From the IMG/VR virus record IMGVR_UViG_3300028048_000060, positions 90,737 to 154,736 of that record: DNA of 64,000 bases; one strand, 5' to 3'. Position 1 is the stretch's first letter. Each line of letters opens with the position of its first letter. Below are positions 22,367 through 54,769 of this stretch, one piece after another. Below the pieces are notes generated by a model, which was not told where the DNA came from, did no database searches, and was given only the letters and a program-made list of their open reading frames with translations. A program made the translations under genes and the position numbers. Origin of the DNA: a virus. Taxonomy: Duplodnaviria; Caudoviricetes.

Positions 22367-22822
22367 ATGCTCAGAGTAGATTATAAACTTATATATGATA
22401 TCTTAGATGAAAAGAAACAGAGTCTTCTTAAGTTTGGAAATATCTATCCTTTTGGTTCAAAACTTCCTGAGGATAACGTAAAGAACATGGTTAAGGACAT
22501 AGATGATTTCTTAGGAAACATCAAGTTAATGGTGAACACTGGAGATGTCTACGTAGAAATTAATAACATGGCTGACCTTCCAAAGAACAAAACAAATGGA
22601 GAGGTTTCTATAAAAGAACTTAATCTCTTAGATGTCAGTTCAGGAACAGGAATGTGTTATTTCTCAGTTGTCGCCATCCAGTGTGTAAAGACTGCTTGTG
22701 TGGACATCTTTAACAGAAATGTCTTTAAACAGGGTGATAATCTGTTCTATGTTACGTCTGAGGATGCTTCTCAGAATAAAAAAGGAGTTATTACAATCAA
22801 CAAGACTGTGTTCAGAAGGTGA
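22367..22822 (+). CDS. hypothetical protein
   Basis: AAGGAG RBS; the stop codon overlaps the tnpB right end. Confidence 0.6.
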   Translation: MLRVDYKLIYDILDEKKQSLLKFGNIYPFGSKLPEDNVKNMVKDIDDFLGNIKLMVNTGDVYVEINNMADLPKNKTNGEVSIKELNLLDVSSGTGMCYFSVVAIQCVKTACVDIFNRNVFKQGDNLFYVTSEDASQNKKGVITINKTVFRR

Positions 22823-22834
22823 ACTACATCTGCC

Positions 22835-24073
22835 CTAAAGGGAAGATGCTTCATGTTTCGTTGATTGATTGGATCTCTGAATTGCTTCAGAGATCTGTTT
22901 TTCAATCTCCACATGCTTAAATTTGGTGCGTCCCACACCTATATTATTCTTATAGAAAAATATCATATTCTTAGATGCATGAATATCTCTATCTTCTGTT
23001 ATACTACATTCACAAGAGAATGTTCTATCTGATAGAGATAAGTCGTGATATTTTCCACAATTTCTACACAGTTTAGTTGTTGGAAGATAAGCATTTAAAC
23101 AAATTGCATTTGGATTTCTCATCAATTTTGCTTTGACTCTTCCAAGAATACTATGTTGTATAGTCTTACCAAAAGTTCCAGACCATGCATGTAGTTGTTC
23201 ATCTTGGAAAACACAAATTTGATTATCTGTTAAATCACGAACAATCTTATTTGCTAAATCTTCCTTACGATTACACATTTTCTCATATTCTTTCTGGATC
23301 TTTAGACGAGTTTTGTACCTGTTGTTAGAGTTTTTCTTTTGTTTCTGCATCTTTCTTTGCAGTTTCTTTAGTCTCTCAGTTTCTCCAACAAGAACACTAA
23401 TCTTTTGACCTTCAGAAGTGGTGATATGTGTAGAAATTCCTAAATCAATACCAATGACCTTTTCAGGTTTTGTGTATTCTTCTTTTTTATTAAAAGTTGT
23501 TATCTTTAAATAATAACCTGAAGATGTATGTACTAAATTTGCATTTGCGCACTCTACATCTTTATCATAAATGAACTGTTCTAATCCTTGTACCTTTACA
23601 GTTCCAACATTAACTATCCTAACTTTGTTATGGTCTACAATTTTATGTGTACTGCCGTACTGTACTAACGGAAGAGATTTAAGGTCTGAAATATATCCTA
23701 TTCTTCCAACCTTCTTACCTTTCTTCTTTAAAGTGGATAATGTCTTAATATTGGAAATAAAATTTTTATATAGTCCTAATTTTTGTTGTGAACTTAGATA
23801 GTTAAAATCAGAAATAACTTCATTATGTTCTTTGTCAAAATGTTTAACACTTTTAATCTTTAAATCAACGTCTTTAATATCATTAGTTTCGGTGAAATTT
23901 ACAATGTGATTCCAGAACCACTTTCCTTCAACAAACATCATCTTTAATGATTCTTTCTGTTTCTTAGAAAGTTTGTTAGTCTGAATTTTAAGAGAATAGA
24001 CCTTGCACTCCTGAGATTTTCTCTTCTCACGAGTTTCCAATAAACTTTGTCTTATTTGTTCGTTCTTGGTCAT
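22835..24073 (-). CDS. tnpB: TnpB RNA-guided nuclease (IS200/IS605/IS607 family)
   Basis: VIGIDLG, VFQDE, TTKLCRNC..CEC and DRDIHASKN; right-end hairpin gaagcatcttccctttagggcagatgtagttcac ending at 22819. Confidence 0.9.
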   Translation of the reverse strand: MTKNEQIRQSLLETREKRKSQECKVYSLKIQTNKLSKKQKESLKMMFVEGKWFWNHIVNFTETNDIKDVDLKIKSVKHFDKEHNEVISDFNYLSSQQKLGLYKNFISNIKTLSTLKKKGKKVGRIGYISDLKSLPLVQYGSTHKIVDHNKVRIVNVGTVKVQGLEQFIYDKDVECANANLVHTSSGYYLKITTFNKKEEYTKPEKVIGIDLGISTHITTSEGQKISVLVGETERLKKLQRKMQKQKKNSNNRYKTRLKIQKEYEKMCNRKEDLANKIVRDLTDNQICVFQDEQLHAWSGTFGKTIQHSILGRVKAKLMRNPNAICLNAYLPTTKLCRNCGKYHDLSLSDRTFSCECSITEDRDIHASKNMIFFYKNNIGVGRTKFKHVEIEKQISEAIQRSNQSTKHEASSL

Positions 24074-24199
24074 TTGGTCTACTCTTTTTTAATTTATTTA
24101 TATTTTGGGTGAACTACATCATATCATTTTCAGTAATAAATACAAAAAAGATATGTTCCATTAGGTTCATATATGAATAGTTGTTAATGGAGTAGATGA

Positions 24200-24445
24200 A
24201 TGGACTATCAGAAGTACCAAAGCGCAAAGAACAATATCCTTGACTACATAAATGACAGGGATAAGTTCAACAGGGTCTACTATCTGATAAATGAAAACAT
24301 AGATGCTTTAGACACTGTTGTTAATACTGTTTACAAAGATTTTGACATGATGGATAAAAGAGTAGTCTTAGAGTTCCTGGAACATCTGAAAAAGATAATG
24401 GAACTCAGAGACGTAGAGGACAAGGGAACAAAGAATGGAAAATAG
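24200..24445 (+). CDS. hypothetical protein
   Basis: GGAG RBS. Confidence 0.5.
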   Translation: MDYQKYQSAKNNILDYINDRDKFNRVYYLINENIDALDTVVNTVYKDFDMMDKRVVLEFLEHLKKIMELRDVEDKGTKNGK

Positions 24446-24644
24446 TATCTTTAAGATAATAAAGCACAAAGATAAAACCTTAGAAGACTCTGTTTGGGAT
24501 TTAAGCAATGACACTGGCATCTTAAAGTGTGTTTTTCCTGGAAACTCAAAGGAACAGTTTGGTTTGGGTTTTGAAGTCTTAGACCCAAAGAAGACTGAAA
24601 TCTTAGAAGGAATTATCGAGAAAGAGACCTTTCAGTTAGTTTAG
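24435..24644 (+). CDS. hypothetical protein
   Basis: Overlaps the upstream ORF. Confidence 0.45.
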   Translation: MENSIFKIIKHKDKTLEDSVWDLSNDTGILKCVFPGNSKEQFGLGFEVLDPKKTEILEGIIEKETFQLV

Positions 24645-25796: not shown

Positions 25797-25898
25797 TTTT
25801 TAATTCATTTAAAACTCTTTTAAAAAAATGTGTTTTATTATATAATAGGGCATATGTGACCTACATCTTCCCTAAAGGATAGATGCTTCCATTTACAA

Positions 25899-27224
25899 TC
25901 AAATATTTGATTGTAGTTCAGACATCTGAGACTTGTGCGTAGCACAAAAATCCAGATGTTTGAAGGTTTTATACTCCGAGAGGTCCTTCCCAAGAGTTTG
26001 ATGCGATTTGTTGTAAACAACAGTCTCACCAAAATTTAATAAGTTCAAGGCAGAGTTATAATCTCTATCAATGATATTACCGCATCCACACTCAAGTGTA
26101 CGTTTGGTAACATCTTTCATTTCTGAATGAATTTTTCCACATTTACAACAAATTTGAGAACTTGGGTAATATTTGTCTGCAAGGACAAAATGACACCCAA
26201 ATTTCTCAGAATTTTCTTCTAACTTTTTAAGGAAATAATTCCATTGTAACAAACTTACTGACTTGCCATGATTACCGCCTTTGGTGGAAGTTTTGGCATC
26301 TAAGTAAGATGTATGCCTAGACATTTCTTTGAGGTCCAAATTCTCAACAACTATCAATTCATTGTGTAAACACAATTCTCTTGATAACTTGTTGAGATAG
26401 TCCTTCTGAATGTTATGAATTGTTTCGTAGAGTTTGTTACGTTTCATCGTGATACGATGGACTTTAACAGAGGTACGAAACTTTTTCTTAGATTTGGTTC
26501 TCATCTTTGAAATAGTTTCATTTAAGGAATTAATCTTCTTTTGAAGTGATTCCATCTTAGACCTCTTTGTTGAGAACTTTGGTGCCTTCGCACCAAAACT
26601 ATCAACGAACAGGTCTTTCAAGGAAAAATCTAAACCAATATGACCATTATCTACACGTTCTTCGTAAACCTTGTCGACTTCGACAAGTAATGAGACTTTG
26701 TAGACCCCAGTTTTAGTTCTTCTGATAGTTCCATACTTAATCTTAGAACTATCTTTTAGAAAAATAGGTTCAATATATTTATTTAAAAATCTAACCTTTC
26801 CAATCTTCGGTATCTTTACGTATGACTTTGACGCATCGTCAGGATTATACGAAATATTCGTGATTGAGGAAGGATAAGAGTCATTATGATCTTTCTTACA
26901 TTTGAAACGTCTTAGTCCTACGGGCTGGCCTTTCAATCTCTTATTTCTATTGATTTTATTAGTTTGAACGAAGTTCAATCTTATAGCAGAACATGCCCAA
27001 CTTTCCATATCTTTCAGGAATTCGTGTTTCTCACGTAATTCTGGAAATGATGGATAATTTGGCATTCTATCTTCTTTAATACAATTCAAATATTCTTCAA
27101 TAAGTTTATTCTTAAACCATCTTGATATGTCTAAAGATTTTGATAATTTAATTTTGTCAGAAGATGTCGGGTTTAGTGTTAACACTAGACCTCGATATGT
27201 TCTTTCTGAAATTATTTTATCCAT
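25899..27224 (-). CDS. tnpB: TnpB RNA-guided nuclease (family copy A)
   Basis: HIGLDF, IVVENL, YPSSQICCKC..CGC and DRDYNSALN; right-end hairpin ending GGTCAC at 25856. Confidence 0.92.
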   Translation of the reverse strand: MDKIISERTYRGLVLTLNPTSSDKIKLSKSLDISRWFKNKLIEEYLNCIKEDRMPNYPSFPELREKHEFLKDMESWACSAIRLNFVQTNKINRNKRLKGQPVGLRRFKCKKDHNDSYPSSITNISYNPDDASKSYVKIPKIGKVRFLNKYIEPIFLKDSSKIKYGTIRRTKTGVYKVSLLVEVDKVYEERVDNGHIGLDFSLKDLFVDSFGAKAPKFSTKRSKMESLQKKINSLNETISKMRTKSKKKFRTSVKVHRITMKRNKLYETIHNIQKDYLNKLSRELCLHNELIVVENLDLKEMSRHTSYLDAKTSTKGGNHGKSVSLLQWNYFLKKLEENSEKFGCHFVLADKYYPSSQICCKCGKIHSEMKDVTKRTLECGCGNIIDRDYNSALNLLNFGETVVYNKSHQTLGKDLSEYKTFKHLDFCATHKSQMSELQSNI

Positions 27225-27412
27225 CTTTAGAATACCTCTTAGTACGTTTTCTCTAAATTTATTTATATTTTAAAAATCAGGAAGTTACGTTTATAAACGA
27301 GATTTTCCTTTGCTTTTTAATAAATTTTTAATATAATTAAAAGAAAGTACAACGTCTGAATATGCTTGCCTTAGGCAAGCATATTTAGAAATATTTGACT
27401 AAGGAGACTTAA

Positions 27413-27985: not shown

Positions 27986-28011
27986 AAACATAAAGAGAAA
28001 GGAGTAAGGAA

Positions 28012-28401
28012 ATGGAATATAAAAACTGTGATATAGATTTTTACACTCTCACTGTAGGTGAACTATTGAATTTAGACAATAAGGAAGAACAGCTTATTGT
28101 CAATGGATTTATTTTCTTTCCAAATACTTATATAAGAGAGTTAAAAACTGCTGAATTGCAGTTGTTATTTGATGAAGATACATTTGAAGATGTCATTGAG
28201 AAATACCCTTATCATAAACATAAGGAGGTTAGGTACGATGTTCAGCAAAGACTTAATCAATATGCAAGGAATGGTAGCTGTGTAATGTATATAAACAAAG
28301 CATATGTTATACTCATTACTCGTGATAGTGTACATCATATTGAAAGAGCCAATTTTGATAGTGCTGTTAGAACACTTACAGGAAGTGAAATAATAGTATA
28401 A
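28012..28401 (+). CDS. early hypothetical protein
   Basis: After the early promoter; AAGGA RBS. Confidence 0.6.
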   Translation: MEYKNCDIDFYTLTVGELLNLDNKEEQLIVNGFIFFPNTYIRELKTAELQLLFDEDTFEDVIEKYPYHKHKEVRYDVQQRLNQYARNGSCVMYINKAYVILITRDSVHHIERANFDSAVRTLTGSEIIV

Positions 28402-28456
28402 CACTGGAATTCTTTCTTTTGATTTTGAAGATGGAATACTTATAAGGAGAAAAGAT

Positions 28457-28842: not shown

Positions 28843-29286
28843 ATGAAACTTAAAATACAAGGAATTATCAAACAGAGTTCAGTTGATGGTGAGGGAATTA
28901 GATATGTTATATTCTGCCAGGGATGCCCTCACCATTGTAAAGGATGTCATAATCCTGAAACTTGGAATCCTGACAAAGGATACTTTATTGAAACAGATGA
29001 TATCTTAGAAGAAATCAAGTATGACCCTTTGTTAGATGGAGTTACTTTTAGCGGAGGCGAACCCTTCCTTCAGCAAAAACCTTTAATCGACTTAGCTAAG
29101 AAGATAAAGAATTTGGGTTTAGATATTTGGTGCTATACTGGATATGAGTATGAGGAGGTCAAAGACTCTCCTCTTATAAAATCAGGGCTTATAGATGTCT
29201 TAGTAGACGGAAAGTACATCCAGGAACTAAGAACTCTTGGAGGATTTAAAGGTTCTTCTAATCAAAGAATTATTAGACTTAACTAA
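28843..29286 (+). CDS. nrdG: anaerobic ribonucleotide reductase activating enzyme
   Basis: VDGEGIR, GCPHHCKGCHNP (CxxxCxxC), GVTFSGGEP, DVLVDG and GSSNQR. Confidence 0.95.
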   Translation: MKLKIQGIIKQSSVDGEGIRYVIFCQGCPHHCKGCHNPETWNPDKGYFIETDDILEEIKYDPLLDGVTFSGGEPFLQQKPLIDLAKKIKNLGLDIWCYTGYEYEEVKDSPLIKSGLIDVLVDGKYIQELRTLGGFKGSSNQRIIRLN

Positions 29287-29519
29287 TCTGTTGAAGACTC
29301 ATTTAAGTATCTAAGGAATCTAACTAAAAACATATTCTCAACTAAGATGTTGATGAACTCGTCGTCAATTTCACTAACAGGGATGGTTCCTTTTAGACTG
29401 TCTATATAGGACCATCCTTGCCATCTTGGGAAGTCTCTTCTCTTTATCCCTTTAAAGTTACAATAAAACTTTTGGTCCTTCTCAAACCATTTTTCTAAAA
29501 AATCTGTAAATCCTTCCAT
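29283..29519 (-). CDS. hypothetical protein
   Basis: Downstream of 29533 in the same orientation; C-terminal YLNES. Confidence 0.45.
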   Translation of the reverse strand: MEGFTDFLEKWFEKDQKFYCNFKGIKRRDFPRWQGWSYIDSLKGTIPVSEIDDEFINILVENMFLVRFLRYLNESSTD

Positions 29520-31138: not shown

Positions 31139-31240
31139 AAGACTTTATTTTTTAAGTGATTTGCATTAAAATATAAGCTAGATATAACCATCTAGCTTAT
31201 TTTTAAAATATAAATATATGTATAGTTAAAAGGAATCTAA

Positions 31241-32554
31241 ATGAAACAAAAGAATCAATCTAATAAATCCATCAGAGGTTTAGTTCTTGAACTAAGACCT
31301 GATGATAGTCAGAAAATTCTTTTGTCTGAACATTTAGATGGTTGTAGATTCATATATAATCAATATGTTGAAGAGTATTTAACTTCTATCAAAGAGGATA
31401 GACTCCCTAATTATAAAGATTATAAAGACTTACGTGCAGAGCACGAATTCCTTAAAGATTTATATTCATGGACTCTTCAACAAGTTAAGTTTCAATTCAT
31501 TCAAACTAATAGAATCAATAGATCTAAAAGATCAAATGGTCAGTCCATAGGATTAATTAAATTTAGATCTAAAAAGTCTCACAGTGATTATTTTTATACC
31601 AATAATGTAAAATTATCATATAATTGTGACTGTAAGTCAGAATCATATGTAAACATTCCAAAAATAGGTAAGATTAAATTTTTACGTAATGGTATTAAAT
31701 CTAAGTTATTAGAAGGTAAAATTAAGTCAGCAGTAGTTAGAAGAACCAAAACTGGAGTTTACAAGATTTCGTTACTTGTTGAGGTCAACAAAGTTTACGA
31801 AAATCGTGTAGATAATGGTCATGTAGGTTTAGATTTTTCCCTAAAAGACTTATTTGTCGATAGTTTTGGTGCGAAGGCACCAGAGTTCTTAACAAAGAGG
31901 TCTAAGATGGAATTATTTCAGAATAAGATTAATTCCTTAAATGAAACTATTTCAAAGATGAGAACCAAATCTGAGAAAAAGTCTCGTACCTCTGTTAAAG
32001 TTCATCGTTTAACGATGAAACGTAACAAACTCTTCGAAAGAATTCATAACATTCAGAAGGACTATATCAACAAGTTATCAAGAGATTTGTGTAAACACAA
32101 TGAATTGATAGTTGTCGAAAATTTAGACCTCAAAGAAATGTCTAGGCATACATCTTACTTAGATGCCAAAACTTCCACCAAGGGTGGAAATCATGGAAAG
32201 TCAGTAAGTTTGTTACAATGGAGTTATTTCCTTAAAAAGTTAGAAGAAAATGCTGAGAAATTTGGGTGTCATCTTGTCCTTGCGGACAAATATTACCCAA
32301 GTTCTCAAATTTGTTCTAAGTGTGGAAAGATTCATAGTGAAATGAAGGATGTTACCAAACGTACACTTGAGTGTGAATGTGGTAATATCATTGATAGAGA
32401 TTATAACTCTGCAATTAATATTTTAAAATTCGGTGAGTCTGTTGTTTACAACAAATCTTACCAAACTCTTGGGAAGGAACTCTCGGAGTATAAATCTTTT
32501 AAGTGTTTAGATTTTTCAAAATCAAAAACATTTAAACTACAGTCAGATCTCTGA
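31241..32554 (+). CDS. tnpB: TnpB RNA-guided nuclease (family copy B)
   Basis: HVGLDF, IVVENL, CSKC..CEC and DRDYNSAIN; right-end hairpin gctattgacctttagatcaatagc then agttcat ending at 32597. Confidence 0.92.
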   Translation: MKQKNQSNKSIRGLVLELRPDDSQKILLSEHLDGCRFIYNQYVEEYLTSIKEDRLPNYKDYKDLRAEHEFLKDLYSWTLQQVKFQFIQTNRINRSKRSNGQSIGLIKFRSKKSHSDYFYTNNVKLSYNCDCKSESYVNIPKIGKIKFLRNGIKSKLLEGKIKSAVVRRTKTGVYKISLLVEVNKVYENRVDNGHVGLDFSLKDLFVDSFGAKAPEFLTKRSKMELFQNKINSLNETISKMRTKSEKKSRTSVKVHRLTMKRNKLFERIHNIQKDYINKLSRDLCKHNELIVVENLDLKEMSRHTSYLDAKTSTKGGNHGKSVSLLQWSYFLKKLEENAEKFGCHLVLADKYYPSSQICSKCGKIHSEMKDVTKRTLECECGNIIDRDYNSAINILKFGESVVYNKSYQTLGKELSEYKSFKCLDFSKSKTFKLQSDL

Positions 32555-32583
32555 TTGTAAATAGAAGCTATTGACCTTTAGAT

Positions 32584-32730
32584 CAATAGCAGTTCATGCT
32601 TTATTTTACTTCTGACCAACACTTTGGTCATACTAACATTATTAAGTACACTAAAGGCCAATAACAGTTCATGCTTTATTTTACTTCTGACCAACACTTT
32701 GGTCATACTAACATTATTAAGTACACTAAA
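32584..32730 (+). repeat. 72-bp direct duplication (period 75) of the tnpB right-end tip plus the first 20 codons of the phosphoesterase
   Basis: 32584-32655 versus 32659-32730, one mismatch. Confidence 0.9.
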
Positions 32731-33335: not shown

Positions 33336-35288
33336 TTAATTTTGGAAGATTTTAAAACACTTCTTAGATGGTCCAGATGAACTAAATTGTAAAATTGATT
33401 TAAAACACTTAAATCCATCAAACTTCCAGGAATCGCCTAAACTTTCTCTTAGAAGTAACTCTATATTATCTGTGAGAACATTTTGTTCTAAGATAAACTC
33501 TTCGTTAATTAGATTAGCTAGTTTCAGTTCTAAGCTTCTTGGAATCTTAACTGTTTTGTTTCCTTCACTAAGACTGAAATCCTGTTCTTTTGCTTTTCTT
33601 CTTAGAATGTCAGAACCCAGTGGAAGAGTTACTGGAGCGATGTTAGCTGAAGTTGTTCCTAAGGCACAGTCTCCACAGTCTCCGCCTCCACATCCTTCTC
33701 CATCTTCTTCTAAGTAATCAACAAACAGTTTGCCTTGGCTAAGACCTTCTCCTAGACTAATTTCATCATAAGTTGCTAAAATCTCAGGATACAAACTATG
33801 AATCTCCTTAGGAGTGTTCTTTTCAAAAAATTCTTTATCTCTTATATTAGAAATGACTTTTGTTGCACTTATAGCATCTGAGTCTCTTGGATACTCTCTA
33901 ACATCTAATCCTAAGACCTTTTCTACTTGTTTTACATAGTCAAAGTATCTGTCACTTCCACAGAACACTGTGTTGATGTTAAATGGAGACTTAGACAACA
34001 TTCCTAAGATGTTTCCTGAATTGTGTTCAATGATTTCAATCTTATTCTTAAATGTTTTCTCTAACATCTTGTATCTAAGGTCTCTTGTTGCTTTAGTATC
34101 CTTAGATGAAACTAAGCAAACTAGGACTTTGTCGTACTCTTTTAATGCTTTGTTGATAACATTACAGTGTCCATTTGTAAGAACTCTAAACTTTCCTAAG
34201 ATTAAACACCCATTATTTCCCTTTAATGCCTTTAAGATTAAAATTTTAGCATTATGATGGATATCATCTTTTATCTGTAACTCGTTCTTCTTAGAATGAG
34301 ATATGTTAAAGTCTGTTTTCTCTAATAACTCAGATAGTTTTTTAAGTCTTAGATTAATTGGACCTCTTGTAATCTTAGAAGCAATTTCCTTAGATGCTTT
34401 TATTACTTCCTTCCAGTATAGGTCTTCATCTTCAGGATTTTCTTCCATGAACTTTTGTTTGATTAGTCTTCGAGCATTTTGGTCTAACTGATATTCTTGC
34501 TGAACTTTGATTATCTTGTCATCGTACTTGATAACAACTCCTTCTTCTTTTCCACCATAAACGCTTTCTACTTCTAACAGTGTCTTGGTGATTGCTTTCC
34601 AAAGAACTTCAGGGTCTTCTGAATTAAAATCTTCTATGTTCTTATTATAAACATCTCTTAGAGAATTACTTAAAATTCCATTTTTAAAGTCTTTGAGATA
34701 ACCTTTAAACAGTTTGTTTGGAACATCTACTTGAAGGAGTTTAGCATACTCGTCTCTGTTCTCAGTCTCCATAGTCTTAGAGTTAGTCTTTAGAGTTCCA
34801 AATTTAATTTCATTTTCATTATAAGAGCACTGGCTATATCCAATCAGAACTAAGTGATGTGGATTAGTATAGTTAGAACTTAAAGTTGGTTTTCTCTGAA
34901 GAAATTCAATAGCAAACTCAGTGTTAATAGGAAGTCCTGTCTTTCCTAGATTACTAAAATGGTCTAAGACTAACTTATACTGAGAGATGCCTATAGACTT
35001 CTGAATGATTTGCTTAGAGTCCTGGAAGGAAAATTCCTCACTGTACATTATTTGGTTCTTATAGGCAATAATCCAGTCATTTAAGTCTCCATTGTCGTTT
35101 ATATGGAGAACAGTCAGCTTAGTTCCATCTGTTTTGTGTTCTATCTCTACTTCAGTGTTCAAAAGACTCTCAATATCTGACTTAGTCTTTATTACCTTAG
35201 AAGCACTAAGAATAGAGATATCTAGCTGGTCTTTAGACTCAAAGACCATATTTGGGTCTTTGCTTTCGAACAGTTGTTTTAGTCTCAC
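33336..35288 (-). CDS. ATP-dependent ligase-like domain fused to HIGH-family (cytidylyltransferase-like) nucleotidyltransferase
   Basis: Ligase motifs EHKTDG (I), IEF (III), EEGVVIK (IV) and IKV (V), then GKFRVLTNGH, GSDR and ISAT; GTG start; several (L/F)xE-S/G sites. Confidence 0.75.
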   Translation of the reverse strand: MRLKQLFESKDPNMVFESKDQLDISILSASKVIKTKSDIESLLNTEVEIEHKTDGTKLTVLHINDNGDLNDWIIAYKNQIMYSEEFSFQDSKQIIQKSIGISQYKLVLDHFSNLGKTGLPINTEFAIEFLQRKPTLSSNYTNPHHLVLIGYSQCSYNENEIKFGTLKTNSKTMETENRDEYAKLLQVDVPNKLFKGYLKDFKNGILSNSLRDVYNKNIEDFNSEDPEVLWKAITKTLLEVESVYGGKEEGVVIKYDDKIIKVQQEYQLDQNARRLIKQKFMEENPEDEDLYWKEVIKASKEIASKITRGPINLRLKKLSELLEKTDFNISHSKKNELQIKDDIHHNAKILILKALKGNNGCLILGKFRVLTNGHCNVINKALKEYDKVLVCLVSSKDTKATRDLRYKMLEKTFKNKIEIIEHNSGNILGMLSKSPFNINTVFCGSDRYFDYVKQVEKVLGLDVREYPRDSDAISATKVISNIRDKEFFEKNTPKEIHSLYPEILATYDEISLGEGLSQGKLFVDYLEEDGEGCGGGDCGDCALGTTSANIAPVTLPLGSDILRRKAKEQDFSLSEGNKTVKIPRSLELKLANLINEEFILEQNVLTDNIELLLRESLGDSWKFDGFKCFKSILQFSSSGPSKKCFKIFQN

Positions 35289-37489: not shown

Positions 37490-37627
37490 TTTTAAATACC
37501 TTTAAACTTTTATGTCTATTTATAGAAGCATATTAAAATAGGGTCTTTAAGGACATATAATGGTATTGATTCTTTTACAAATAAATTATATAATATTTTT
37601 AAATAAAAAAATCAAGGAGATTTAATA

Positions 37628-38947
37628 ATGGCTAAGAAAACTTCTGAGAAAAATATCAAGGGTTTAGTATTAATACTAAATCCCGTTCAGTCTCAGAAAA
37701 TTCTTCTTGATAAACATTTAAACAATACAAGATTCATCTATAACAAATATGTAGAAGAATACTTATCATGCTTAAAGGAAAATAGAATTCCAGATTATAA
37801 GGATTATCAGGATCTATGTGAGGAAAACGAATTCCTGAAAGGTCCTTATTCTTGGTCACTTCAACAAGTTAAATTTCAATTCATAAAAACAAATAAAATT
37901 AATAGAGCAAAGAGAGGAAAAGGACAGTCAGTGGGAATTGTTCATTTTCGGTCTAAAAAGGCTCATAAAGATTATTTTTATACTAATAATGTAAAACTTT
38001 CGTTCGACCATGATGATAAGTCAAAATCATACGTAAAATTGCCAATTATTGGTAAGATTCAAATTTTAAATAAGAATATAAAAGATGAATTATTAAAAGG
38101 TAAAATTAAGTCAGCAGTAGTTAGAAGAACCAAAACTGGAGTTTACAAGATTTCGTTACTTGTCGAGGTCGACAAGGTTTACGAAGAACGTGTAGATAAC
38201 AGTCATGTTGGTCTTGATTTTTCGCTAAGAGATTTCTTTGTTGATAGTTTTGGTGCGAAGACACCAGAGTTCTCAACAAAGAGGTCTAAGATGGAATCAC
38301 TTCAAAAGAAGATAGATTCCTTAAATGAAACTATTTCAAAGATGAGAACCAAATCTAAGAAAAAGTCTCGTACCTCTGTTAAAGTTCATCGTTTAACGAT
38401 GAAACGTAACAAACTCTTCGAAAGAATTCATAACATTCAGAAGGACTATATCAACAAGTTATCAAGAGATTTGTGTAAACACAATGAATTGATAGTTGTC
38501 GAAAATTTAGACCTCAAAGAAATGTCTAGGCATACATCTTACTTAGATGCCAAAACTTCCACCAAGGGTGGAAATCATGGAAAGTCAGTAAGTTTGTTAC
38601 AATGGAGTTATTTCCTTAAAAAGTTAGAAGAAAATGCTGAGAAATTTGGGTGTCATCTTGTCCTTGCGGACAAATATTACCCAAGTTCTCAAATTTGTTG
38701 TAAATGTGGAAAAATTCATTCAGAAATGAAAGATGTTACCAAACGTACACTACAGTGTGAATGTGGTAACAATTTAGATAGAGATCATAATTCAGCAATT
38801 AATATTTTAAAATTCGGTGAGTCTGTTGTCTACAACAAATCTTACCAAACTCTTGGGAAGGAACTCTCGGAGTATAAAACCTTCAAACATCTGGATTTTT
38901 GTGCTACGCACAAGTCTCAGATGTCTGAACTAGAATCAAATATTTGA
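37628..38947 (+). CDS. tnpB: TnpB RNA-guided nuclease (family copy C)
   Basis: HVGLDF, IVVENL and DRDHNSAIN; right-end hairpin then aagttcat ending at 38990; promoter TTGATT-17-TATAAT at 37566-37594. Confidence 0.92.
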   Translation: MAKKTSEKNIKGLVLILNPVQSQKILLDKHLNNTRFIYNKYVEEYLSCLKENRIPDYKDYQDLCEENEFLKGPYSWSLQQVKFQFIKTNKINRAKRGKGQSVGIVHFRSKKAHKDYFYTNNVKLSFDHDDKSKSYVKLPIIGKIQILNKNIKDELLKGKIKSAVVRRTKTGVYKISLLVEVDKVYEERVDNSHVGLDFSLRDFFVDSFGAKTPEFSTKRSKMESLQKKIDSLNETISKMRTKSKKKSRTSVKVHRLTMKRNKLFERIHNIQKDYINKLSRDLCKHNELIVVENLDLKEMSRHTSYLDAKTSTKGGNHGKSVSLLQWSYFLKKLEENAEKFGCHLVLADKYYPSSQICCKCGKIHSEMKDVTKRTLQCECGNNLDRDHNSAINILKFGESVVYNKSYQTLGKELSEYKTFKHLDFCATHKSQMSELESNI

Positions 38948-39059
38948 TTCTAAATGGGACCAGATTTTCTAAAGAATATCTGAAGTTCATATTGATATCT
39001 AACTTAAATTATTATAAAATAAAATCAAAGAACTTATTTAGAAGGAATTAGGAACTAAA

Positions 39060-43483: not shown

Positions 43484-43484
43484 T

Positions 43485-45192: not shown

Positions 45193-46548
45193 CTAAACAT
45201 ATTTCAATATGTTGTAAACAATATTATTCTTTTTGCACTTCAAAAGACTCTTTCTTGGGTCATTAAGATTGTTCAGCGCTTCCTCAGAAATAGCAATATA
45301 TCCTAAGTATCCATCTACTTTACATTCTATGTAGTTTTCCATTAAAGAGTTAGACGAGTAGACTCTTATTTCCTGGTAGATATCATTTACAGTGTCATAG
45401 ACATGGATAACTCTATTATCTCCTTGAAGAGGAATTTCAACTAAGTCTGTTATTCCTGTCTCTAATTCTGTTATCAAGCATCTGTAAGTTTCATCTCCTT
45501 GAGGTTGGACTACTATACTGTTCTCAGTTCCAATTATGGTTTCTTCGTTATCCTTAGTCCAAGAATAAGAGTAAAGTTCTTTAACATCATCCTGAACTGC
45601 TTTTAATCTATAAATCCCTGAGTCTATCTGTTCAGATGTATAGGTTGAAACTATAGCTTCCTTCTCAGATGTTCCGTCTAAGTCACTCACACTAACCTTA
45701 AACCACTTAGAACCTGAAACTTCTGTTTGTATTATAGAATCATAAAGATAAAGTTTCCTATATCTTGAACCATTATATGCTTTAGAACTCCATGAAAATG
45801 AAACACTACTTCCATCAGGGTCATAAGAACCACTAGCATCTAAAGTTACTTTGGTTCCATCTTTAACTGAGAGGTGATTTCTGACCAAAGAAGGCACAGG
45901 TTTAGAGTCAGTTCCAAAGTAAAATCCTTCTTTAGCTACAGTATTATCAATAAAATACAAAAACAGATAAGAGTCGAAGACTCCAATATCCACTGGAAGT
46001 TCCTGGTCAACTAAGACTTCGTTTGTTAAAGAATTTTTAGCTAAACACTTAAATTTCCATTTGGGGATAGATGTATCATAAACAATAGCCATTTCAAAGG
46101 AAATATAAGATGTACTTTGAAAGCTATATTCTATATTATCAATAATTAGTTTATTATTATATAAAGCAATGCTTTTTAATTCTTCTAAGGACATTCCACA
46201 AATTAAAGTATTTGAGTTATCAGGAACATAGCACTCAGACCTAAAGACTAATCCTCCTTTGTTAGCCACATCAAAATGAGGATTAGACTGTGTGAAGTCA
46301 TTCAAAGTCAAAACTGAGTTTCCATTGGCTGCCCAGTTTCTTGCTAATGCTTGTTTCTTAGTTAAGATAACATTATTATTTTGGTCTATAATGTTTCCTG
46401 TTGTGTAGTCAAATCTGAGTTCTAAGACTTCTTTTACATAGACTATAATATCAGTAAAGTCAGTCATTCCACTCTGAGTTGTTATCTTTAACCTGTAAGT
46501 AGTAGTCTCAGGTGGACTTACTATTATCTTTGGTTCGTTTGAAATCAT
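45193..46548 (-). CDS. virion protein with PKD/Ig-like modules
   Basis: VTLDASGSYDPDG..FSW and V.P..TTTYRL motifs. Confidence 0.7.
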   Translation of the reverse strand: MISNEPKIIVSPPETTTYRLKITTQSGMTDFTDIIVYVKEVLELRFDYTTGNIIDQNNNVILTKKQALARNWAANGNSVLTLNDFTQSNPHFDVANKGGLVFRSECYVPDNSNTLICGMSLEELKSIALYNNKLIIDNIEYSFQSTSYISFEMAIVYDTSIPKWKFKCLAKNSLTNEVLVDQELPVDIGVFDSYLFLYFIDNTVAKEGFYFGTDSKPVPSLVRNHLSVKDGTKVTLDASGSYDPDGSSVSFSWSSKAYNGSRYRKLYLYDSIIQTEVSGSKWFKVSVSDLDGTSEKEAIVSTYTSEQIDSGIYRLKAVQDDVKELYSYSWTKDNEETIIGTENSIVVQPQGDETYRCLITELETGITDLVEIPLQGDNRVIHVYDTVNDIYQEIRVYSSNSLMENYIECKVDGYLGYIAISEEALNNLNDPRKSLLKCKKNNIVYNILKYV

Positions 46549-47441: not shown

Positions 47442-49229
47442 TTAGATATCTAAATCAATTGTTTCTACATTAGAAGCATCATAATCTGAGTTATCAATAG
47501 CAAATCCTTCAGGACCTGACGCATCTAACTCTGCTCCAATTTGACAATCACTAAGAACAGACTGTCCTGTCGCGCTTTGAGCAGGGTCTCCTTCTGTAAA
47601 CCAAAACATTTCCGACAAAGGCGGATTTGATGAATATGAGTTTTGGTTTGTTCGCAAATTGACTCTAACAAATTGAAGCTTTGTCACTGGATGTGTCCAG
47701 TAAAGAGCACTTTCGAATGCCTGAGTTGTAAAATTCACATATCCCTGAATGCTTCTCCTCTTACAAGGATACGCTTTCCAGGTCAAGGAAATATCATCCT
47801 GTGTTGGATTTAAAACCTTTTCAGGAACAGTATAGAACATGTTGTACCATTTAATGTGTCTTGGCCCAATTCTATACATATACTTTTTAAACTGTCTCTG
47901 AATAGGAACTATAAGTGATGTTCCCGTTTGAGAACTACAAGACTTATCATATAAGAACTCATAAGAACCAAAGATATTGTCACAGACCAAACATCCATAT
48001 ATTGTGTGTTCTATGTTGTTTACAGTCTGTTTCATCCAAGGAACTACGCACCAACAAGTTCCAAAAATTTTAAGAGGGTGATGTCTGTATGCTAGGTCAC
48101 AGTCTGTATAGCTGATGTCATACTTTCCTGATGAACTGTTTTGAGGGTATGGGAAAGGAATATAGTTTCCAGTGGTATGGTGAAGCCACAGGTCAGGAGT
48201 AGTATCAGGAGCATCAAATCTAGGATTAAATGTTGAAGAAACATTTTCTGATGTTGACATATTAATAGGATTAATAAAATATTGTTCATCACCATAAATG
48301 TCATTCATCTTAAAACTTGGACCATCTTCGTCAAATCTTGACAAAAATGATTTTACACCATAAGAGTCTGTATATACTTTAAATGACTGATTAAGATATC
48401 CATATGATGAAAATGTAAGTGCATTTGTAGACTCGTATACTGTTGAAGAGCAGATTAAAGGAAGTCCTGGGATCTTCACAAATCCAACTGTCTGATAAAA
48501 TCTGTTATTAGGAACTGTTAAACGACCAAACATTTTGTCTGTTTTAAAGACAAAATAGAACTCTTCCTGAAGGTCTGTATCAGTAAAATAGAACATCTCA
48601 ACAGATACTTCTTCGACATTGTCATCGATTCTTATTTCACCATTGAATTTAAAATACCTGTCAGTATAGTAATTTGAAGTGTTAGATGCATACTGCCATC
48701 TGGTAGTAGTAAAGTCTTTTTTGAGGAGACCTAGGCCAGAAAAGAAACCATCTGTGTCGTATCGGTCTCCTGAGTCTACGTAGCCTGAAGGGTCCTGAGT
48801 ACATAGTTTTGTGATTTCAGTTCCTGATGTGTTATATCCCTGAAGAACACCGCCACCATACCCTTTGTTCTCAATTCGCCAGAAACGGGTAGATGGATTT
48901 TCAAAAGGATAAATAGAAATCACTCTTGAGTTATGTAGAGGTTTACTTATAGAAAAATGAAACTCTCCATTAGGGTCATTCTGAGAAAAAGTGCTTCCGC
49001 TACCACTGTAGAGATACTCAAAGGTTGGAGGAGTCCAGTAGTTCAAAGATGGAGAATTGTTTTGTGAACTGAAGTCTTTATAAAGACAATAATTACATCC
49101 ATGAGACTTAGAAGTATCTAAAGTCCATCCATTTAAGACCATAAAGTCTTTTATTTTTTCTCTTATAGTATTATTAAGAACTGAAGCATCATCATTTATG
49201 TTCTTTGTGACTATTACTTTTTTATACAT
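47442..49229 (-). CDS. probable virion/tail-associated protein
   Basis: 595 aa, aromatic/Ser-rich, F...NGWT N-terminal pattern; lies in the structural operon. Confidence 0.55.
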   Translation of the reverse strand: MYKKVIVTKNINDDASVLNNTIREKIKDFMVLNGWTLDTSKSHGCNYCLYKDFSSQNNSPSLNYWTPPTFEYLYSGSGSTFSQNDPNGEFHFSISKPLHNSRVISIYPFENPSTRFWRIENKGYGGGVLQGYNTSGTEITKLCTQDPSGYVDSGDRYDTDGFFSGLGLLKKDFTTTRWQYASNTSNYYTDRYFKFNGEIRIDDNVEEVSVEMFYFTDTDLQEEFYFVFKTDKMFGRLTVPNNRFYQTVGFVKIPGLPLICSSTVYESTNALTFSSYGYLNQSFKVYTDSYGVKSFLSRFDEDGPSFKMNDIYGDEQYFINPINMSTSENVSSTFNPRFDAPDTTPDLWLHHTTGNYIPFPYPQNSSSGKYDISYTDCDLAYRHHPLKIFGTCWCVVPWMKQTVNNIEHTIYGCLVCDNIFGSYEFLYDKSCSSQTGTSLIVPIQRQFKKYMYRIGPRHIKWYNMFYTVPEKVLNPTQDDISLTWKAYPCKRRSIQGYVNFTTQAFESALYWTHPVTKLQFVRVNLRTNQNSYSSNPPLSEMFWFTEGDPAQSATGQSVLSDCQIGAELDASGPEGFAIDNSDYDASNVETIDLDI

Positions 49230-49245: not shown

Positions 49246-50346
49246 CTATTTCATTTCTATAACAATATAGTTCTGTGGACCAATTCTATTTAAGTCATTA
49301 GCCACAACAAATGCTCTTCCGCCTGACTGGATGATAGCATCTACATACCCTTTAACACTAGCAGGAGAAGAGTCCTGAATGTCAACATCTGTTCCTCCTA
49401 CCTGGATAACGAACTTAGTGTAGATGTTAAATCCTGATATCTTATAGACACCATTTAACTTTCCTGGAAGTATCATCTTAGGGATAATATAAGGAGTGTG
49501 ACACGAACTATTGCTTTGTCCTGATGCCATTACATACAATTCTCCTAAGCCATAGTCACCTGTAGATGGATAGTTTGGCCATCCTGGACAGTAACAACCC
49601 CATGCAATAAAGTCAAATGAAGGACTGTAGAAACTTTGGTCAGTCCAGGAGTGTGCATTTTGACGTCCATAATTTAAATCATCAGTTACATCTCCATTAT
49701 AGTATCTCAGGTATTCTGATGTGTTTTCTGTTTCCTTCATATAGTAAGGGTAATAGCCTCCTGAAGCAGGTGGAATATTGTTAAAAAATCCATCAGTGTG
49801 ATACTGAGTTGAACTAATAACACAGAAAGGATAATTTGCCTTAGATTCAAACTGGTCTATAAAACCTAGGTAAAAGTTAGATGAAAACTGATTGTTTATA
49901 TATAGAAATCCATATAAATGAAAATCATCAACACACGCAAAATACTCTAAGGAGTCATTTGAAGCAATGATAGTCTTAGTGTTTGAGAAGTCCTGTTGGT
50001 GGATGTCTTTGGTGTCATCAAAAGATGGAAATGTCCAAACTCCAATGTTAAAGGAGTCCTTAGAAAAGTCGCTTCCTGTTTCAAAGACAAAATACAATGT
50101 TTCTGAAGGATTACTTACAAACAACTGTCTTTGCTCTATTTCATCATTAGAAGCATAAGTAGAACTTGCTTCTATAGCTGAGTAAGGACTTTCATAATTT
50201 TCCTTATAATCTATGATATTCCAGTTTGCATCTGTGAATAACTGTTTTAAAATTCTTAGAAACTGTTTGTGGGCATTAACAGTCTTCAGACTCTCGTCTG
50301 ACATAGTCTCCTTCTGAGACTTGAAAAGTGTTCCTATACTGTACAT
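49246..50346 (-). CDS. probable virion structural protein
   Basis: L..F...NW N-terminal pattern and G.L.GVY..SG motif; operon context. Confidence 0.55.
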   Translation of the reverse strand: MYSIGTLFKSQKETMSDESLKTVNAHKQFLRILKQLFTDANWNIIDYKENYESPYSAIEASSTYASNDEIEQRQLFVSNPSETLYFVFETGSDFSKDSFNIGVWTFPSFDDTKDIHQQDFSNTKTIIASNDSLEYFACVDDFHLYGFLYINNQFSSNFYLGFIDQFESKANYPFCVISSTQYHTDGFFNNIPPASGGYYPYYMKETENTSEYLRYYNGDVTDDLNYGRQNAHSWTDQSFYSPSFDFIAWGCYCPGWPNYPSTGDYGLGELYVMASGQSNSSCHTPYIIPKMILPGKLNGVYKISGFNIYTKFVIQVGGTDVDIQDSSPASVKGYVDAIIQSGGRAFVVANDLNRIGPQNYIVIEMK

Positions 50347-52379: not shown

Positions 52380-52382
52380 TAT

Positions 52383-52640
52383 ATGGAAGAAGTTGAAATG
52401 GCAGAAGTAAATCCTGTTGACCTGGAATATGCTAAACTTACAAACAGAATTTTAAAGTTTATCTTAGAGGAAAGAGAGAAAGACTCGTCTATTCCTATTG
52501 TTGACTTGATTATGTCTTTTTGCTTTAAGAACGATGTGGATCCTGTTGAAGCAGGTGATGCTATCTCACAGGATTATTATCTAAAGCAACTCATAGAGAA
52601 CAATATGAAATCAAAGGACCTATCAGAAACAGACTGGTGA
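52383..52640 (+). CDS. gp33: late-transcription coactivator (T4 gp33-like)
   Basis: Size; IVDLIMSFC.KNDVD.......IS....LK..IE pattern; adjacent to gp55. Confidence 0.7.
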   Translation: MEEVEMAEVNPVDLEYAKLTNRILKFILEEREKDSSIPIVDLIMSFCFKNDVDPVEAGDAISQDYYLKQLIENNMKSKDLSETDW

Positions 52641-52801
52641 TTTTTTAAAAGTTTGACCTATATCATATTTTTTTACTTCTCATATAAATAAATTAAAAAA
52701 GGTTGACCTGCTTCAAATTTTTTAATATAATAATAATGTAAAGAATATCTTTACGAAGTAGGTCTAAGTTGATTTTTATTTTGATATATAGGAGAAATAA
52801 A

Positions 52802-52876
52802 ATGAGAGAATTTAAGAACACTGAATACAAGCCAGTAACAAAAGAGTATCATTTTACTTACGTTTTTAGAGGTTAA
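52802..52876 (+). CDS. 24-aa small ORF upstream of endonuclease VII
   Basis: AGGAG RBS; MREFKNTEYKPVTKEYHFTYVFRG*; promoter TTGACC-17-TATAAT at 52703-52731. Confidence 0.4.
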   Translation: MREFKNTEYKPVTKEYHFTYVFRG

Positions 52877-52883
52877 TTTTGCT

Positions 52884-53411
52884 ATGGAAAACACACCTAA
52901 TCCCGAAGAGTTAGAATTAAGAGACTTAAAAACATCAGAGATAAAAGAAATAAAAGCACAAATACTAGAGTCTCAGGGATTTAGGTGTGCTATCTGTGGT
53001 AAACCTTTAACGTTAGAAGAGAGTGTCCTGGACCATCAACACAAAATGAGGAAATCAGACGAAAATGGTCCAGATGGAAATGGCTTAGTCAGAGGAGCGC
53101 TTTGCCAAGGGTGTAACTTAGCAGAAGGAAAGATAACCAATGCGTTATTCAGATTCCTTCAGATTAGAACGACAAAGGATAGGATCCTGTTCCTCCAGAA
53201 ACTGATAGAGTATTACTCTAAGGGAACCTATCCTTTTGTTCATCCAACTGAGGTCAAGAAAGAACCTCAAGTTTCAAAGAAAAACTTTAATAAGTTGAAC
53301 AAGCTATATTCTAAGGAAACAGGAAAGGTCTTGGAATACCCAAAATCAAAAAAACTCACTAAAAAACTAAAAGTCTTATTTGAAAAATACAACATAAACC
53401 CTTATAATTAA
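52884..53411 (+). CDS. gp49: recombination endonuclease VII (T4 gp49-like)
   Basis: Q.FRCAICG, LDHQH, VRGALCQGCN.AEG and HP. Confidence 0.9.
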   Translation: MENTPNPEELELRDLKTSEIKEIKAQILESQGFRCAICGKPLTLEESVLDHQHKMRKSDENGPDGNGLVRGALCQGCNLAEGKITNALFRFLQIRTTKDRILFLQKLIEYYSKGTYPFVHPTEVKKEPQVSKKNFNKLNKLYSKETGKVLEYPKSKKLTKKLKVLFEKYNINPYN

Positions 53412-53518
53412 ATGCTTTAAATGCTCTTTAAACATCAAAGAGCATTTTTTTAAAAAAATATTGTTTTTTGTGATTTTATATATAATATAATTATAGAAGA
53501 TATTAAAAAGAGACTTTT

Positions 53519-54769
53519 ATGAAAGATAAAACAAAAACTCTCCTTATAGGAGAAATACAAGTTACACCTTTTGATTCTAGTTATAATGAACTAGATAGAA
53601 TGATGTTCTTATCTAAAAATCTCTATAATACTTGTTTATATGTAGAAAGACAGATTTTCTTTCAGAAAAGAGATTCTAAAGATTCTAATCTAAAAGGGTT
53701 TATAGGTAACTTTGAACTGTCTAAACAGTTGCAAGACGCAAATAATCCCGATTATAGAGCTTTACCTGTTGCTGTTTCACAGCAAGTATGTAAACAAGTG
53801 TATCTAGCATATAAATCATTCTTTGCTTTGTATAAAAAGGGTTTAAAAGCTAGAATACCTAAGTACTTAGATAAGACCAAAGGTAGAAACAGACTTTCTT
53901 TTCCAAAGAATGCTATTTCAAGGACGATTAAAAATGGAGTTATAAAACTTACGGGTTTAAATTGTACGTTTGAACTCCCTGAGTATATAGAACCTGAATC
54001 AGTTCAACAAATAGATATAATCAGGACTCAAAACAGAACTATAAAAATTTTGATTATCTATTCTACTGATAAGATTCCTCTAAAAGAGGATAATAACAGA
54101 GTACTGGGTATTGATTTAGGTTTAAATAACTTGATGTCTGTAGTGTCTAACACTAACGACTTCAAACCTTTAATCTATGATGGAAAGTATTTAAAATCTG
54201 TAAATCAGTTTTGTAATAAACAAGTTTCTAAACTTAAATCTTTATCCAAAAACATTATAACGGAGAAAATATGTTCTATCTATAGAAATAGAATGAACAA
54301 AATAAATAGTTGTCTACATAAATATAGTTCTGATTTAATTAATCAAGCAGTTTCTAATAACTTCAATACCATTGTAATTGGTAAGAACACATCTTGGAAA
54401 CAAGAGATTAACTTAGGACGTAAAAACAATCAAAATTTTGTTTATATACCTTTTAATAATTTAATTAATAAAATTAAATACAAAGCATCTTTAAAAGGAA
54501 TAAACGTTATAGAGACTGAAGAATCATATACTTCTAAATGTTCTTTCTTCGATGATGAATTTCCATGTAAACATGACATATATCAAGGTGAAAGAATACA
54601 CAGAGGTTTATTCAAAAGTTCTAAAGGAACTATAAATGCAGATTTAAATGGTGCTTTAAACATAATAAGGAAAGTCTTTAAAGATTTCAGTTATAAAACA
54701 TCTAACTTAAATATAGACTTCTTTAAAGACATTATAAAAGTAAACCACGATTTTACTGTTTCACAGTAG
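53519..54769 (+). CDS. tnpB: TnpB, clade with rearranged RuvC-II
   Basis: SKNLYN, LGIDLG, IVIGKN.SWKQE, EESYTSKC and NADLNGALNI. Confidence 0.9.
   Translation: MKDKTKTLLIGEIQVTPFDSSYNELDRMMFLSKNLYNTCLYVERQIFFQKRDSKDSNLKGFIGNFELSKQLQDANNPDYRALPVAVSQQVCKQVYLAYKSFFALYKKGLKARIPKYLDKTKGRNRLSFPKNAISRTIKNGVIKLTGLNCTFELPEYIEPESVQQIDIIRTQNRTIKILIIYSTDKIPLKEDNNRVLGIDLGLNNLMSVVSNTNDFKPLIYDGKYLKSVNQFCNKQVSKLKSLSKNIITEKICSIYRNRMNKINSCLHKYSSDLINQAVSNNFNTIVIGKNTSWKQEINLGRKNNQNFVYIPFNNLINKIKYKASLKGINVIETEESYTSKCSFFDDEFPCKHDIYQGERIHRGLFKSSKGTINADLNGALNIIRKVFKDFSYKTSNLNIDFFKDIIKVNHDFTVSQ

Follow-up and report, generated by a model that had tools for sequence, protein, structure and literature searches.

The window analysed here, a stretch of 64,000 nucleotides (nt) of phage DNA (bases 90737-154736 of the 154,736-bp IMG/VR virus contig IMGVR_UViG_3300028048_000060), carries five intact tnpB genes, each within an element of its own (named A to E in window order; F is a sixth copy, outside the window). 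The original prediction had taken these genes for possible RNA-guided homing endonucleases and had proposed a search for empty sites in related phages, and such insertion-free alleles were found for all five elements of the window, which are therefore presence/absence polymorphisms. The nuclease-guide-promoter module of the elements is conserved while the transposase-type left end decays, and no TnpA is encoded within them, so that they do not qualify as autonomous IS200/IS605 insertion sequences (ISs). Together, these data suggest, with moderate confidence, that the elements, with their TnpB and omegaRNA, derive from IS200/IS605 and are maintained by RNA-guided homing from one co-infecting phage to another. 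Cas12 descends from TnpB, and the reason why TnpB is so widespread is debated. Laboratory work has demonstrated restorative homing after excision by the transposase as well as a gene drive in plasmids, whereas phage-to-phage homing has only been proposed.

The contig is ~68% complete, has a G+C content of about 33% and encodes, within the window, a T4-type portal, a sheath and further T4-like proteins; the phage belongs to a clade of gut T4-like phages. Megablast against an isolate phage collection found no close relative of the contig, and a scan of IMG/VR and JGI metagenomes with the flanking proteins gave distant relatives only, from which no clean empty sites were obtained because gene order is broken at the C and D sites. 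Two related contigs from a single sample are referred to as G1 (L009-L013) and G2 (L014-L017, with an extra gene between the neighbours of C). An ENA scaffold found through a large protein collection (L040) is 88-95% identical to window positions 20763-45257, and further alleles were gathered by exact-protein look-ups of the genes neighbouring the elements.

TnpB nucleases, guides and insertion-free alleles

The five open reading frames (ORFs), tnpB-A (22835-24073, minus strand, 412 amino acids), tnpB-B (25899-27224, minus strand, 441 amino acids), tnpB-C (31241-32554, plus strand), tnpB-D (37628-38947, plus strand) and tnpB-E (53519-54769, plus strand), all contain OrfB_IS605 and Cas12f1-like TNB domains scoring above the Pfam cut-offs; tnpB-F is located at contig positions 6218-7513. 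They belong to three lineages: family I, composed of B, C, D and F (71-81% amino-acid identity), and A and E, each about 21-24% identical to all others. Family I aligns to ISDra2 TnpB (8H1J, 8EXA; E~1e-28) with the RuvC D/E/D triad all in place. When tnpB-A is aligned to ISDra2-like TnpB, the RuvC-I and RuvC-III Asp are kept and the RuvC-II Glu is offset by one residue, within 'QDE'. The variant motifs of tnpB-E are IGKN...WKQE / EESYTS: it retains both Asp, IGKN stands where the canonical Glu would be, and a possible alternative Glu lies in EESYTS, presumably a rearranged catalytic site of the kind known from Fanzor/TnpB proteins. Judged from their sequences, A to E are intact TnpB nucleases of IS200/IS605 ancestry, for which cleavage is predicted. 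Synonymous divergence (dS) between family-I copies is 0.39-0.57 within the contig and up to 0.89 against copies in other phages, and the ratio of nonsynonymous to synonymous divergence (dN/dS) is 0.19-0.41 with reading frames intact, indicating purifying selection; the copies thus did not arise in one recent burst, and every one of them has been maintained as a functional gene. Two other ORFs considered as extra tnpB genes (20284-21507 and 948-2267) proved not to be so in a domain search.

The final ~180 nt of every family-I element are conserved, from a CGGTGAG inside the ORF to ...AG(G/T)TCA(C/T), and the alignment of 14 copies from the contig and its relatives yields a multi-stem consensus fold of 40 pairs, 10 of them with compensatory changes, in which the 5' GGTG pairs with the 3' TCAC. 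This putative omegaRNA scaffold was placed by alignment and consensus fold at 32413..32597 in C (plus strand), and its equivalents lie at 25856-26040 in B (minus strand) and 38806-38990 in D (plus strand). The A-type scaffold (22819..22960, minus strand), which runs from the 3' end of tnpB-A through the right end, has a predicted folding energy of -44.1 kcal/mol (z = -5.9), and a protein-less copy in G1 is 91% identical to it over 138 nt; E has a structured 3' region at 54770-54858 (plus strand; fold z = -3.5 against shuffled controls). The scaffolds, with their 5' edge taken from the protein-less copies and their 3' edge from the empty alleles, measure roughly 140-180 nt and overlap the 3' end of tnpB. 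A search of the contig with nhmmer and the family-I scaffold yielded tnpB-linked copies and no protein-less solo copy, and Rfam found no known RNA family at the elements, its only matches being three tRNAs. A 61-nt fragment at contig positions 40521-40580, 85% identical to the A-type scaffold, is probably the remnant of another A-type element.

Since the right end of the elements is exact, the ~16 nt of phage DNA that follow it would serve as the guide. The four guides originally predicted are indeed flanking phage DNA, each beginning exactly where the insertion-free alleles of relatives resume homology. As in homing endonuclease genes, the empty allele retains an intact recognition site, which is perfect for A and C and partial for B, D and E.

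Element A (22819..24191, minus strand) extends from the right end ...GATGTAGTTCAC, whose last base is 22819, to a left end starting TCCATTAAC, and window positions 22824-24195 are missing from L040, L054 and L055. The empty site, in element orientation, reads CCATTCAT-TTTAC up to the insertion point and CTTCTGAACACAGTC after it, and in the filled allele a degenerate 5' motif, CTAC (24192-24195), stands in place of TTTAC. The guide-encoding flank CTTCTGAACACAGTCT (22803..22818, minus strand) matches three empty alleles at 16/16 nt (32/32 in L040), with TTTAC before it, so the predicted target is TTTAC followed by CTTCTGAACACAGTCT (written out, TTTAC+CTTCTGAACACAGTCTTGTT). The flanks are 97-99% identical between filled and empty alleles, and for this reason no conversion tract can be read.

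Element C (family I; 31207..32597, plus strand) has a truncated left end, with only TATAAATA upstream of the ORF, and its right end, ...CAGTTCAT, closes at 32597. It is missing from at least 20 contigs that encode an identical phosphoesterase and in which TTTAT is followed by a guide match of at least 16/16 nt; TTTAT was read at the empty site in at least 5 alleles. This site joins AAGGATTTTTAT to GCTTTATTTTACTTC, the AT of the motif and the following G forming the start codon of the neighbour, and the predicted target is TTTAT followed by GCTTTATTTTACTTCT (written out, TTTAT+GCTTTATTTTACTTCTGACC). L040 carries C at the same site, with AAGGAT joined straight to the left-end-internal sequence AAACATACG, which indicates that the filled allele lost the motif and the left-end leader; compared with L040, the window copy has suffered a further 104-nt deletion that removed the left-end hairpin, along with a second one and a sigma70-like promoter, and left TATAAATA. 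A hairpin upstream of C (31177-31196) and the sequence upstream of the B hairpin were rejected as left-end parts, both being present in empty alleles.

Elements B and D also belong to family I. B (25856..27384, minus strand; right end ...GATGTAGGTCAC at 25856) opens on its left directly with a hairpin (27360-27384) and is missing from L040 and L054, where the empty site, likewise in element orientation, reads AAATATTTCTAA followed by ATATGCT(C/T)TATTATA, with TCTAA instead of TTTAT and a microhomology of 6-7 nt. D (37524..38990, plus strand) has a canonical left end, AGAAGCATATT..., with a weak hairpin, and a right end ...GAAGTTCAT; it is missing from L040, in which the empty site (GTCTATTTAT followed by ATTGATTTTGAATCTT) contains TTTAT, and a further look-up returned only filled alleles of D, from the same strain. 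The 100 nt to the right of D (38991-39090, including the guide region) are 72% identical to L040, against 90-98% in the adjacent segments, which could reflect target-site escape in the empty allele or weak constraint on intergenic DNA.

Element E (53414..54864, plus strand; 1451 bp, with a terminator-like hairpin at 53419-53451) is missing from L047, L049, L051 and L052, of which L047 and L051 encode an identical endonuclease VII protein, and it is present in L048, which is 99.93% identical to the window. Its empty site reads ATAATTAAAT followed by TATCTTTTG, and its boundary is ambiguous by 6 nt because TTAAAT occurs at both junctions. Other short hairpin inserts, GTGTTCT...AGAACAC, occupy the same TTAA junction in the E-less L049 (1069-1130) and L052 (647-736), and this intergenic point, between endonuclease VII and thymidylate kinase, seems from the alleles compared to be an insertion hot spot.

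Outside the window, F is shared with L041 at the same site, and L042 carries a D-like element (90% nt identity) near contig position 31800, where the present contig is empty. This empty site reads TGTATTTAT followed by AAGTCTCCTTGAG (target side also given as AAGTCTCC, 14/16) and has TTTAT, and the element of L042 lacks leader and hairpin at its left end, which starts AAGT.

Decay is therefore seen on one side of the elements. Right-end/guide junctions are exact throughout, and left junctions are altered in four of the five family-I and A cases: the motif of A is mutated, B has neither leader nor motif, C has lost both and suffered the 104-nt deletion, and the L042 element has no hairpin. Hairpins at the left and right ends are present in D, F, B (the hairpin only), A and most copies in relatives, and are lost in the C of the window and the L042 element. 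TTTAT, with a background frequency of 0.0034 per position, stands immediately before the left end in 8 of the 9 copies of G1 and G2 and in F, L038, L021 and L043.

Element-borne promoters and the search for a transposase

The T4-type late motif TATAAATA is found 17 times in the window, against 7.5 expected, and in 13 cases an ATG follows it at a distance of 19-40 nt, portal and sheath being among the genes so preceded. As the original prediction had it, three tnpB genes have this motif in front of them with a spacing like that of portal and sheath: in A at 24095-24102 (minus strand, 21 nt to the ATG, inside the segment missing from the empty alleles), in B at 27260-27267 (minus strand, 35 nt) and in C at 31209-31216 (plus strand, 24 nt). 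The TTGATT-17-TATAAT promoter that it reported was also located, at 37566-37594 (plus strand), in front of the fourth copy, which is D in the present naming; this promoter is sigma70-like, and E probably has a sigma70-like -35/-10 pair too. The accompanying claim that the genes had been placed behind phage promoters did not survive the comparison, since the empty alleles have neither the TATAAATA copies of A and B nor the promoter of D, and these promoters are thus part of the inserted DNA and borne by the elements. Judging by these alleles, the elements have acquired the phage's own late-promoter motif. A left-end module, ...TTTTAAAATATAAATA, is common to B, C and the copies of L038, L021, L040 and L043, and is found with one mismatch in F.

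In G1 and G2 promoters are also fused to scaffolds that have no protein gene. At least six such copies consist of left hairpin, promoter, scaffold and right end, with a consensus TTGACA-17-TATAAT promoter, and one A-type copy in G1 has TATAAATA directly before the A scaffold. Examples of these mini elements are located at 32450-32689, 55546-55787 and ~31290-31441 in G1 and at 21475-21698 and 45491-45702 in G2, and L037, a contig from another sample, has one of them (G1 ~58600-58727) at the corresponding site. Because the promoter lies directly before the scaffold, they would act as stand-alone guide RNA genes, and their sequences suggest that they could use TnpB in trans. A 13-nt match between the flank of a G1 solo right end and the antisense scaffold core was considered as a nested insertion supporting TTTAT, and was discarded because it is too short and the copy is 5'-truncated.

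Neither a Y1 nor a serine transposase had been visible to the original prediction, and hidden Markov model (HMM) searches with PF01797 and PF00239 agree with it, giving no match in the whole 154,736-bp contig. HMM searches of four related contigs (about 180 kb) and the gene contexts listed for relatives gave no Y1 or serine recombinase, and in the metagenome bin fecal_MAG_453, which also contains related phage contigs, only an 80-amino-acid C-terminal remnant of tnpA was found. The whole 1.7-Mb bin has 16 TnpB-domain matches (HMM search), and it is crowded, like G1 and G2, with family-I copies at other sites, within which several contig ends break.

Possible modes of spread and known systems

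In the homing model that we favour, the complex of nuclease and guide would recognise, during infection, the uninterrupted allele of a co-infecting relative through TTTAT or TTTAC and the guide match, and would cut it; recombination-dependent phage repair would then copy the element in, or the cut genome would be lost, so that the element would be kept and spread without a phage-encoded transposase. Such cutting of empty alleles in co-infection, followed by repair copying or genome loss, is what we infer from the comparison of alleles, and it matches both the TnpA-independent drive described in plasmids (PMC11870625) and the non-restorative homing proposed in theory (PMC13565253). The first arrival at a new site was probably due to a Y1 transposase acting in trans or to illegitimate repair. 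The original prediction of a cutting of insertion-free alleles like that of the T4 seg/mob genes is consistent with the intact nucleases, the guides, the empty alleles, the late promoters of A to C and the lack of any transposase found; its assumption about the origin of the promoters fails, these being element-borne, and homing alone does not explain related elements at many sites.

Several observations weigh against homing as the whole explanation. The insertion sites of related elements differ between all phages examined. Phages that share only ~70-76% identity with the contig carry a copy 92% identical to C at a locus other than that of C, and there one and the same TnpB protein recurs on 8 contigs from at least 4 samples; homing cannot create such a pattern. 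Many copies keep the canonical IS200/IS605 geometry, in which TTTAT lies 21 nt ahead of the left hairpin, 8 nt separate the right hairpin from the end, and a CC-TTTA-GG top is common to the two hairpins, and the gene-less mini elements keep both ends, as expected of transposase substrates. The contig is only ~68% complete, which leaves room for a TnpA in trans, be it from the remainder of the phage genome or from the host. Some of the predicted targets are also imperfect, as the guide of B has 1-2 mismatches to its empty site near the motif-proximal end and TTTAT is missing there, and the guide of D matches the L040 target at only ~10/16. Finally, C is filled in about 3 of 23 contigs, and such a minority of filled alleles would be unexpected under an efficient drive.

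A TnpA supplied in trans is consequently the main rival, and it probably accounts for at least the original insertions. As a full account, it is a possible but less probable one, in which the elements would be ordinary non-autonomous ISs (IS1341-like, with miniature derivatives) moved on single-stranded phage DNA by a Y1 TnpA from the host or from unsampled phage DNA, while TnpB would only restore the element after excision, or be irrelevant to phage competition, and the polymorphism would reflect transposition and loss. The canonical hairpin geometry of many copies agrees with it, as do the insertion sites that differ between phages, the mini elements with both ends retained, the tnpA remnant in the bin that also holds related phage contigs, and the TTTAT that directly precedes the left end in the majority of the ~17 left junctions read for family I (B, one G1 copy and the filled junction of C are exceptions). 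T4-like Campylobacter phages, moreover, have the tnpB-only ISCaje1-3 alongside one element with tnpA and tnpB (PMC2853527). However, no intact tnpA was found in the searched contigs or the listed contexts, and the copies in one genome are old (dS 0.4-0.6), yet their ORFs are all intact with dN/dS of 0.2-0.4. Several copies are without the left-end features that Y1 needs, yet have kept promoter, nuclease, scaffold and an exact guide junction, and the built-in late promoters indicate adaptation to expression in lytic infection.

At the opposite end, the elements may have become fully transposase-free, as true homing genes of lytic phages with their own late promoter active while genomes recombine, and reach new sites through breaks made by TnpB, a proposal that we regard as tentative and slightly less probable than transposition in trans. 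Repair of such a break from a copy of the element would proceed through annealing over a short left-side microhomology of a few bases, which would explain why right-end/guide junctions are exact while left junctions lie at microhomologies of 4-7 nt; these were seen in three cases (GGAT in C, ATATGC in B and AAGT in the L042 element). The protein-less copies of promoter and scaffold in relatives would be non-autonomous riders on the same nuclease.

It is rather improbable, in our judgement, that the elements are domesticated weapons, cassettes that cut competitors lacking the insertion and so exclude them, not necessarily copying themselves in, to the benefit of the phage. Purifying selection on old copies, the late promoters carried by the elements, perfect guide matches to abundant wild alleles and eroded left ends, which render the cassettes immobile, would all suit this role, and competitor killing and homing can act together in classical homing endonucleases (review PMC13565253). 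On sequence data alone, however, weapons cannot be told from homing; T4-like phages repair breaks efficiently from a co-infecting template, which makes copying the expected outcome, and the elements have not become fixed but are polymorphic, with differences in presence/absence even between very close strains. Nuclease-dead, TldR-like RNA-guided regulators of neighbouring phage genes are very improbable, in spite of guides located at promoters and gene starts of neighbours and of known phage-encoded TldR proteins (PMC13418256), since the RuvC triad is intact in family I, A and E retain the catalytic Asp residues and have a candidate Glu, and in the filled allele the guide target is preceded by TTCAC/TTCAT and not by the 5' motif, so that the element would leave its own neighbour unbound.

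TnpB has an established role in homing in bacteria (PMC8612924; bioRxiv 10.1101/2023.03.14.532601), and family I shares with the TnpB of ISDra2 (Karvelis 2021, PMC8612924; Meers 2023) the domain order and the RuvC triad. The elements are also alike in a scaffold RNA overlapping both the gene's 3' end and the right end, in the guide taken from the right flank, in having a 5-nt motif 5' of the target (TTGAT in ISDra2, TTTAT/TTTAC in the phage elements) and, for most of the phage copies, in the subterminal hairpins at both ends. They differ in a protein that is about 30% identical or less, in that no tnpA partner was found in the phage contigs, in their hosts, which are lytic T4-like phages, and in left ends that carry phage-type promoters, including the T4 late motif, and are eroded in several cases. 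ISCaje1-3, tnpB-only ISs of the T4-like Campylobacter phages CP220 and CPt10 (Timms 2010, PMC2853527), likewise comprise several tnpB-only IS200/IS605 elements at different sites in related phages, with an AT-rich target motif. However, they represent another TnpB lineage (phage records of the isolate collection are at most ~31% identical), CP220 also has a tnpA-bearing element, and guide RNAs, element-borne late promoters, empty alleles and mini elements are not described in that paper (PMC2853527). TnpB genes are present in hundreds of phage records, and the protein matches in the isolate collection are all at most 31% identical.

TnpB has been shown to drive a TnpA-independent spread of IS605 through multicopy plasmid populations (Mears 2025, PMC11870625) by cutting insertion-free copies and so biasing inheritance towards the element, the very mechanism proposed here for the phage elements. 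That drive was shown with a laboratory element in plasmids, whereas in phages we infer it for natural lytic populations, with promoters tuned to the phage programme. 'Non-restorative transposon homing' into co-infecting phages has been proposed in theory (review PMC13565253). The seg and mob genes of T4 (intronless homing) are likewise nuclease genes located between conserved genes, polymorphic in presence/absence and with intact neighbours, and they spread via recombination-dependent repair in co-infection, as would be expected of the phage TnpB elements; here, by contrast, the target would be read by an RNA guide, self would be distinguished from target by the interruption of the site, which parts the motif from the guide match, and not through sequence divergence of a nearby gene, and the nuclease has a RuvC fold instead of GIY-YIG or HNH. 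The protein-less copies of G1 and G2 resemble PATEs (gene-less IS200/IS605 derivatives), but they carry a strong TTGACA-17-TATAAT promoter or TATAAATA directly before the scaffold; none is present in the window. Our literature search found no report of TnpB homing in lytic phages, of element-borne late promoters or of natural filled/empty allele pairs.

The elements offer a natural test bed for RNA-guided homing between viruses, with filled and empty alleles from real phage populations, an exact guide, target and motif for at least A and C, and copies with defective left ends that a transposase cannot move; the element-borne late promoters, in turn, allow a prediction of when the elements are expressed. 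As small programmable nucleases, TnpB/omegaRNA pairs that are compact, adapted to phages and of known motif may have practical uses as well.

Neighbouring genes and further observations

The elements spare their neighbours at a stop codon, a start codon or a late promoter because the right end TTCAC/TTCAT imitates the displaced TTTAC/TTTAT. At A, the right end GTGAAC (plus strand, 22819-22824) contains the stop codon TGA of the neighbour (22820-22822), which is TAA (in GTAAA) when the site is empty and TGA (in GTGAAC) when it is filled, and the left end provides a GGAG ahead of the next gene. At C, the right end ...GTTCAT at 32597 and the following G re-form an ATG at 32596. At D, the neighbour's late promoter TATAAATA (37517..37524, minus strand), the complement of which, TATTTATA, contains the TTTAT of D, regains its final base from the initial A of the left end, and the same geometry is found at the L042 site (contig ~31800). 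The overlaps originally predicted for the stop codon at A and the ATG at C, and the end of D at 38990 next to the helicase promoter region, were all confirmed, except that the ATG at 32596 is not a real gene start: all that begins there is a duplicated ORF of 22 codons, which stops 8 nt short of the true start of the phosphoesterase gene (32671). This ORF stems from a 75-bp tandem duplication (32584..32730, plus strand; 2 copies at 98% in Tandem Repeats Finder), whose unit joins the final 14 nt of element C to the initial 61 nt of the phosphoesterase gene. The duplication is present in both filled alleles (window and L040) and missing from all empty ones, and it may be a by-product of repair or a compensation for a lost ribosome-binding site.

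All seven contigs retrieved under the name 'MAG: Bacilli bacterium isolate fecal_MAG_453' (L021-L027) are related T4-like phage DNA, with genes for homologues of the proteins of the present phage and with family-I tnpB; their binning with Bacilli might hint at the host or merely mirror a similar base composition. A second, unrelated family of dispersed repeats (~100-300 nt) is found in G1 (15279-15461, 29009-29339, 34551-34742, 35267-35482, 48629-48938, 49413-49562 and 72819-73063) and in G2 (1228-1653, 48691-49154 and 66538-67110).

Insertions and deletions of other kinds also separate these phages. Window positions 28004-28444 (0.44 kb) are swapped in L040 (4413-7091) for ~2.7 kb encoding six small proteins and a Band_7 protein, a further difference between phages that are otherwise ~90% identical, and 1.84 kb directly downstream of F (contig 7895-9732) are missing from L041, which is 92-94% identical. 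The DnaB-like helicase gene (39060-42042) is split by an insert of ~1.5 kb (40145-41637) that contains a Hint (intein) domain and an ORF for a NUMOD3 endonuclease; this insert is missing from G1 and the fecal_MAG_453 bin as well as from L040, where the helicase is uninterrupted (498 amino acids).

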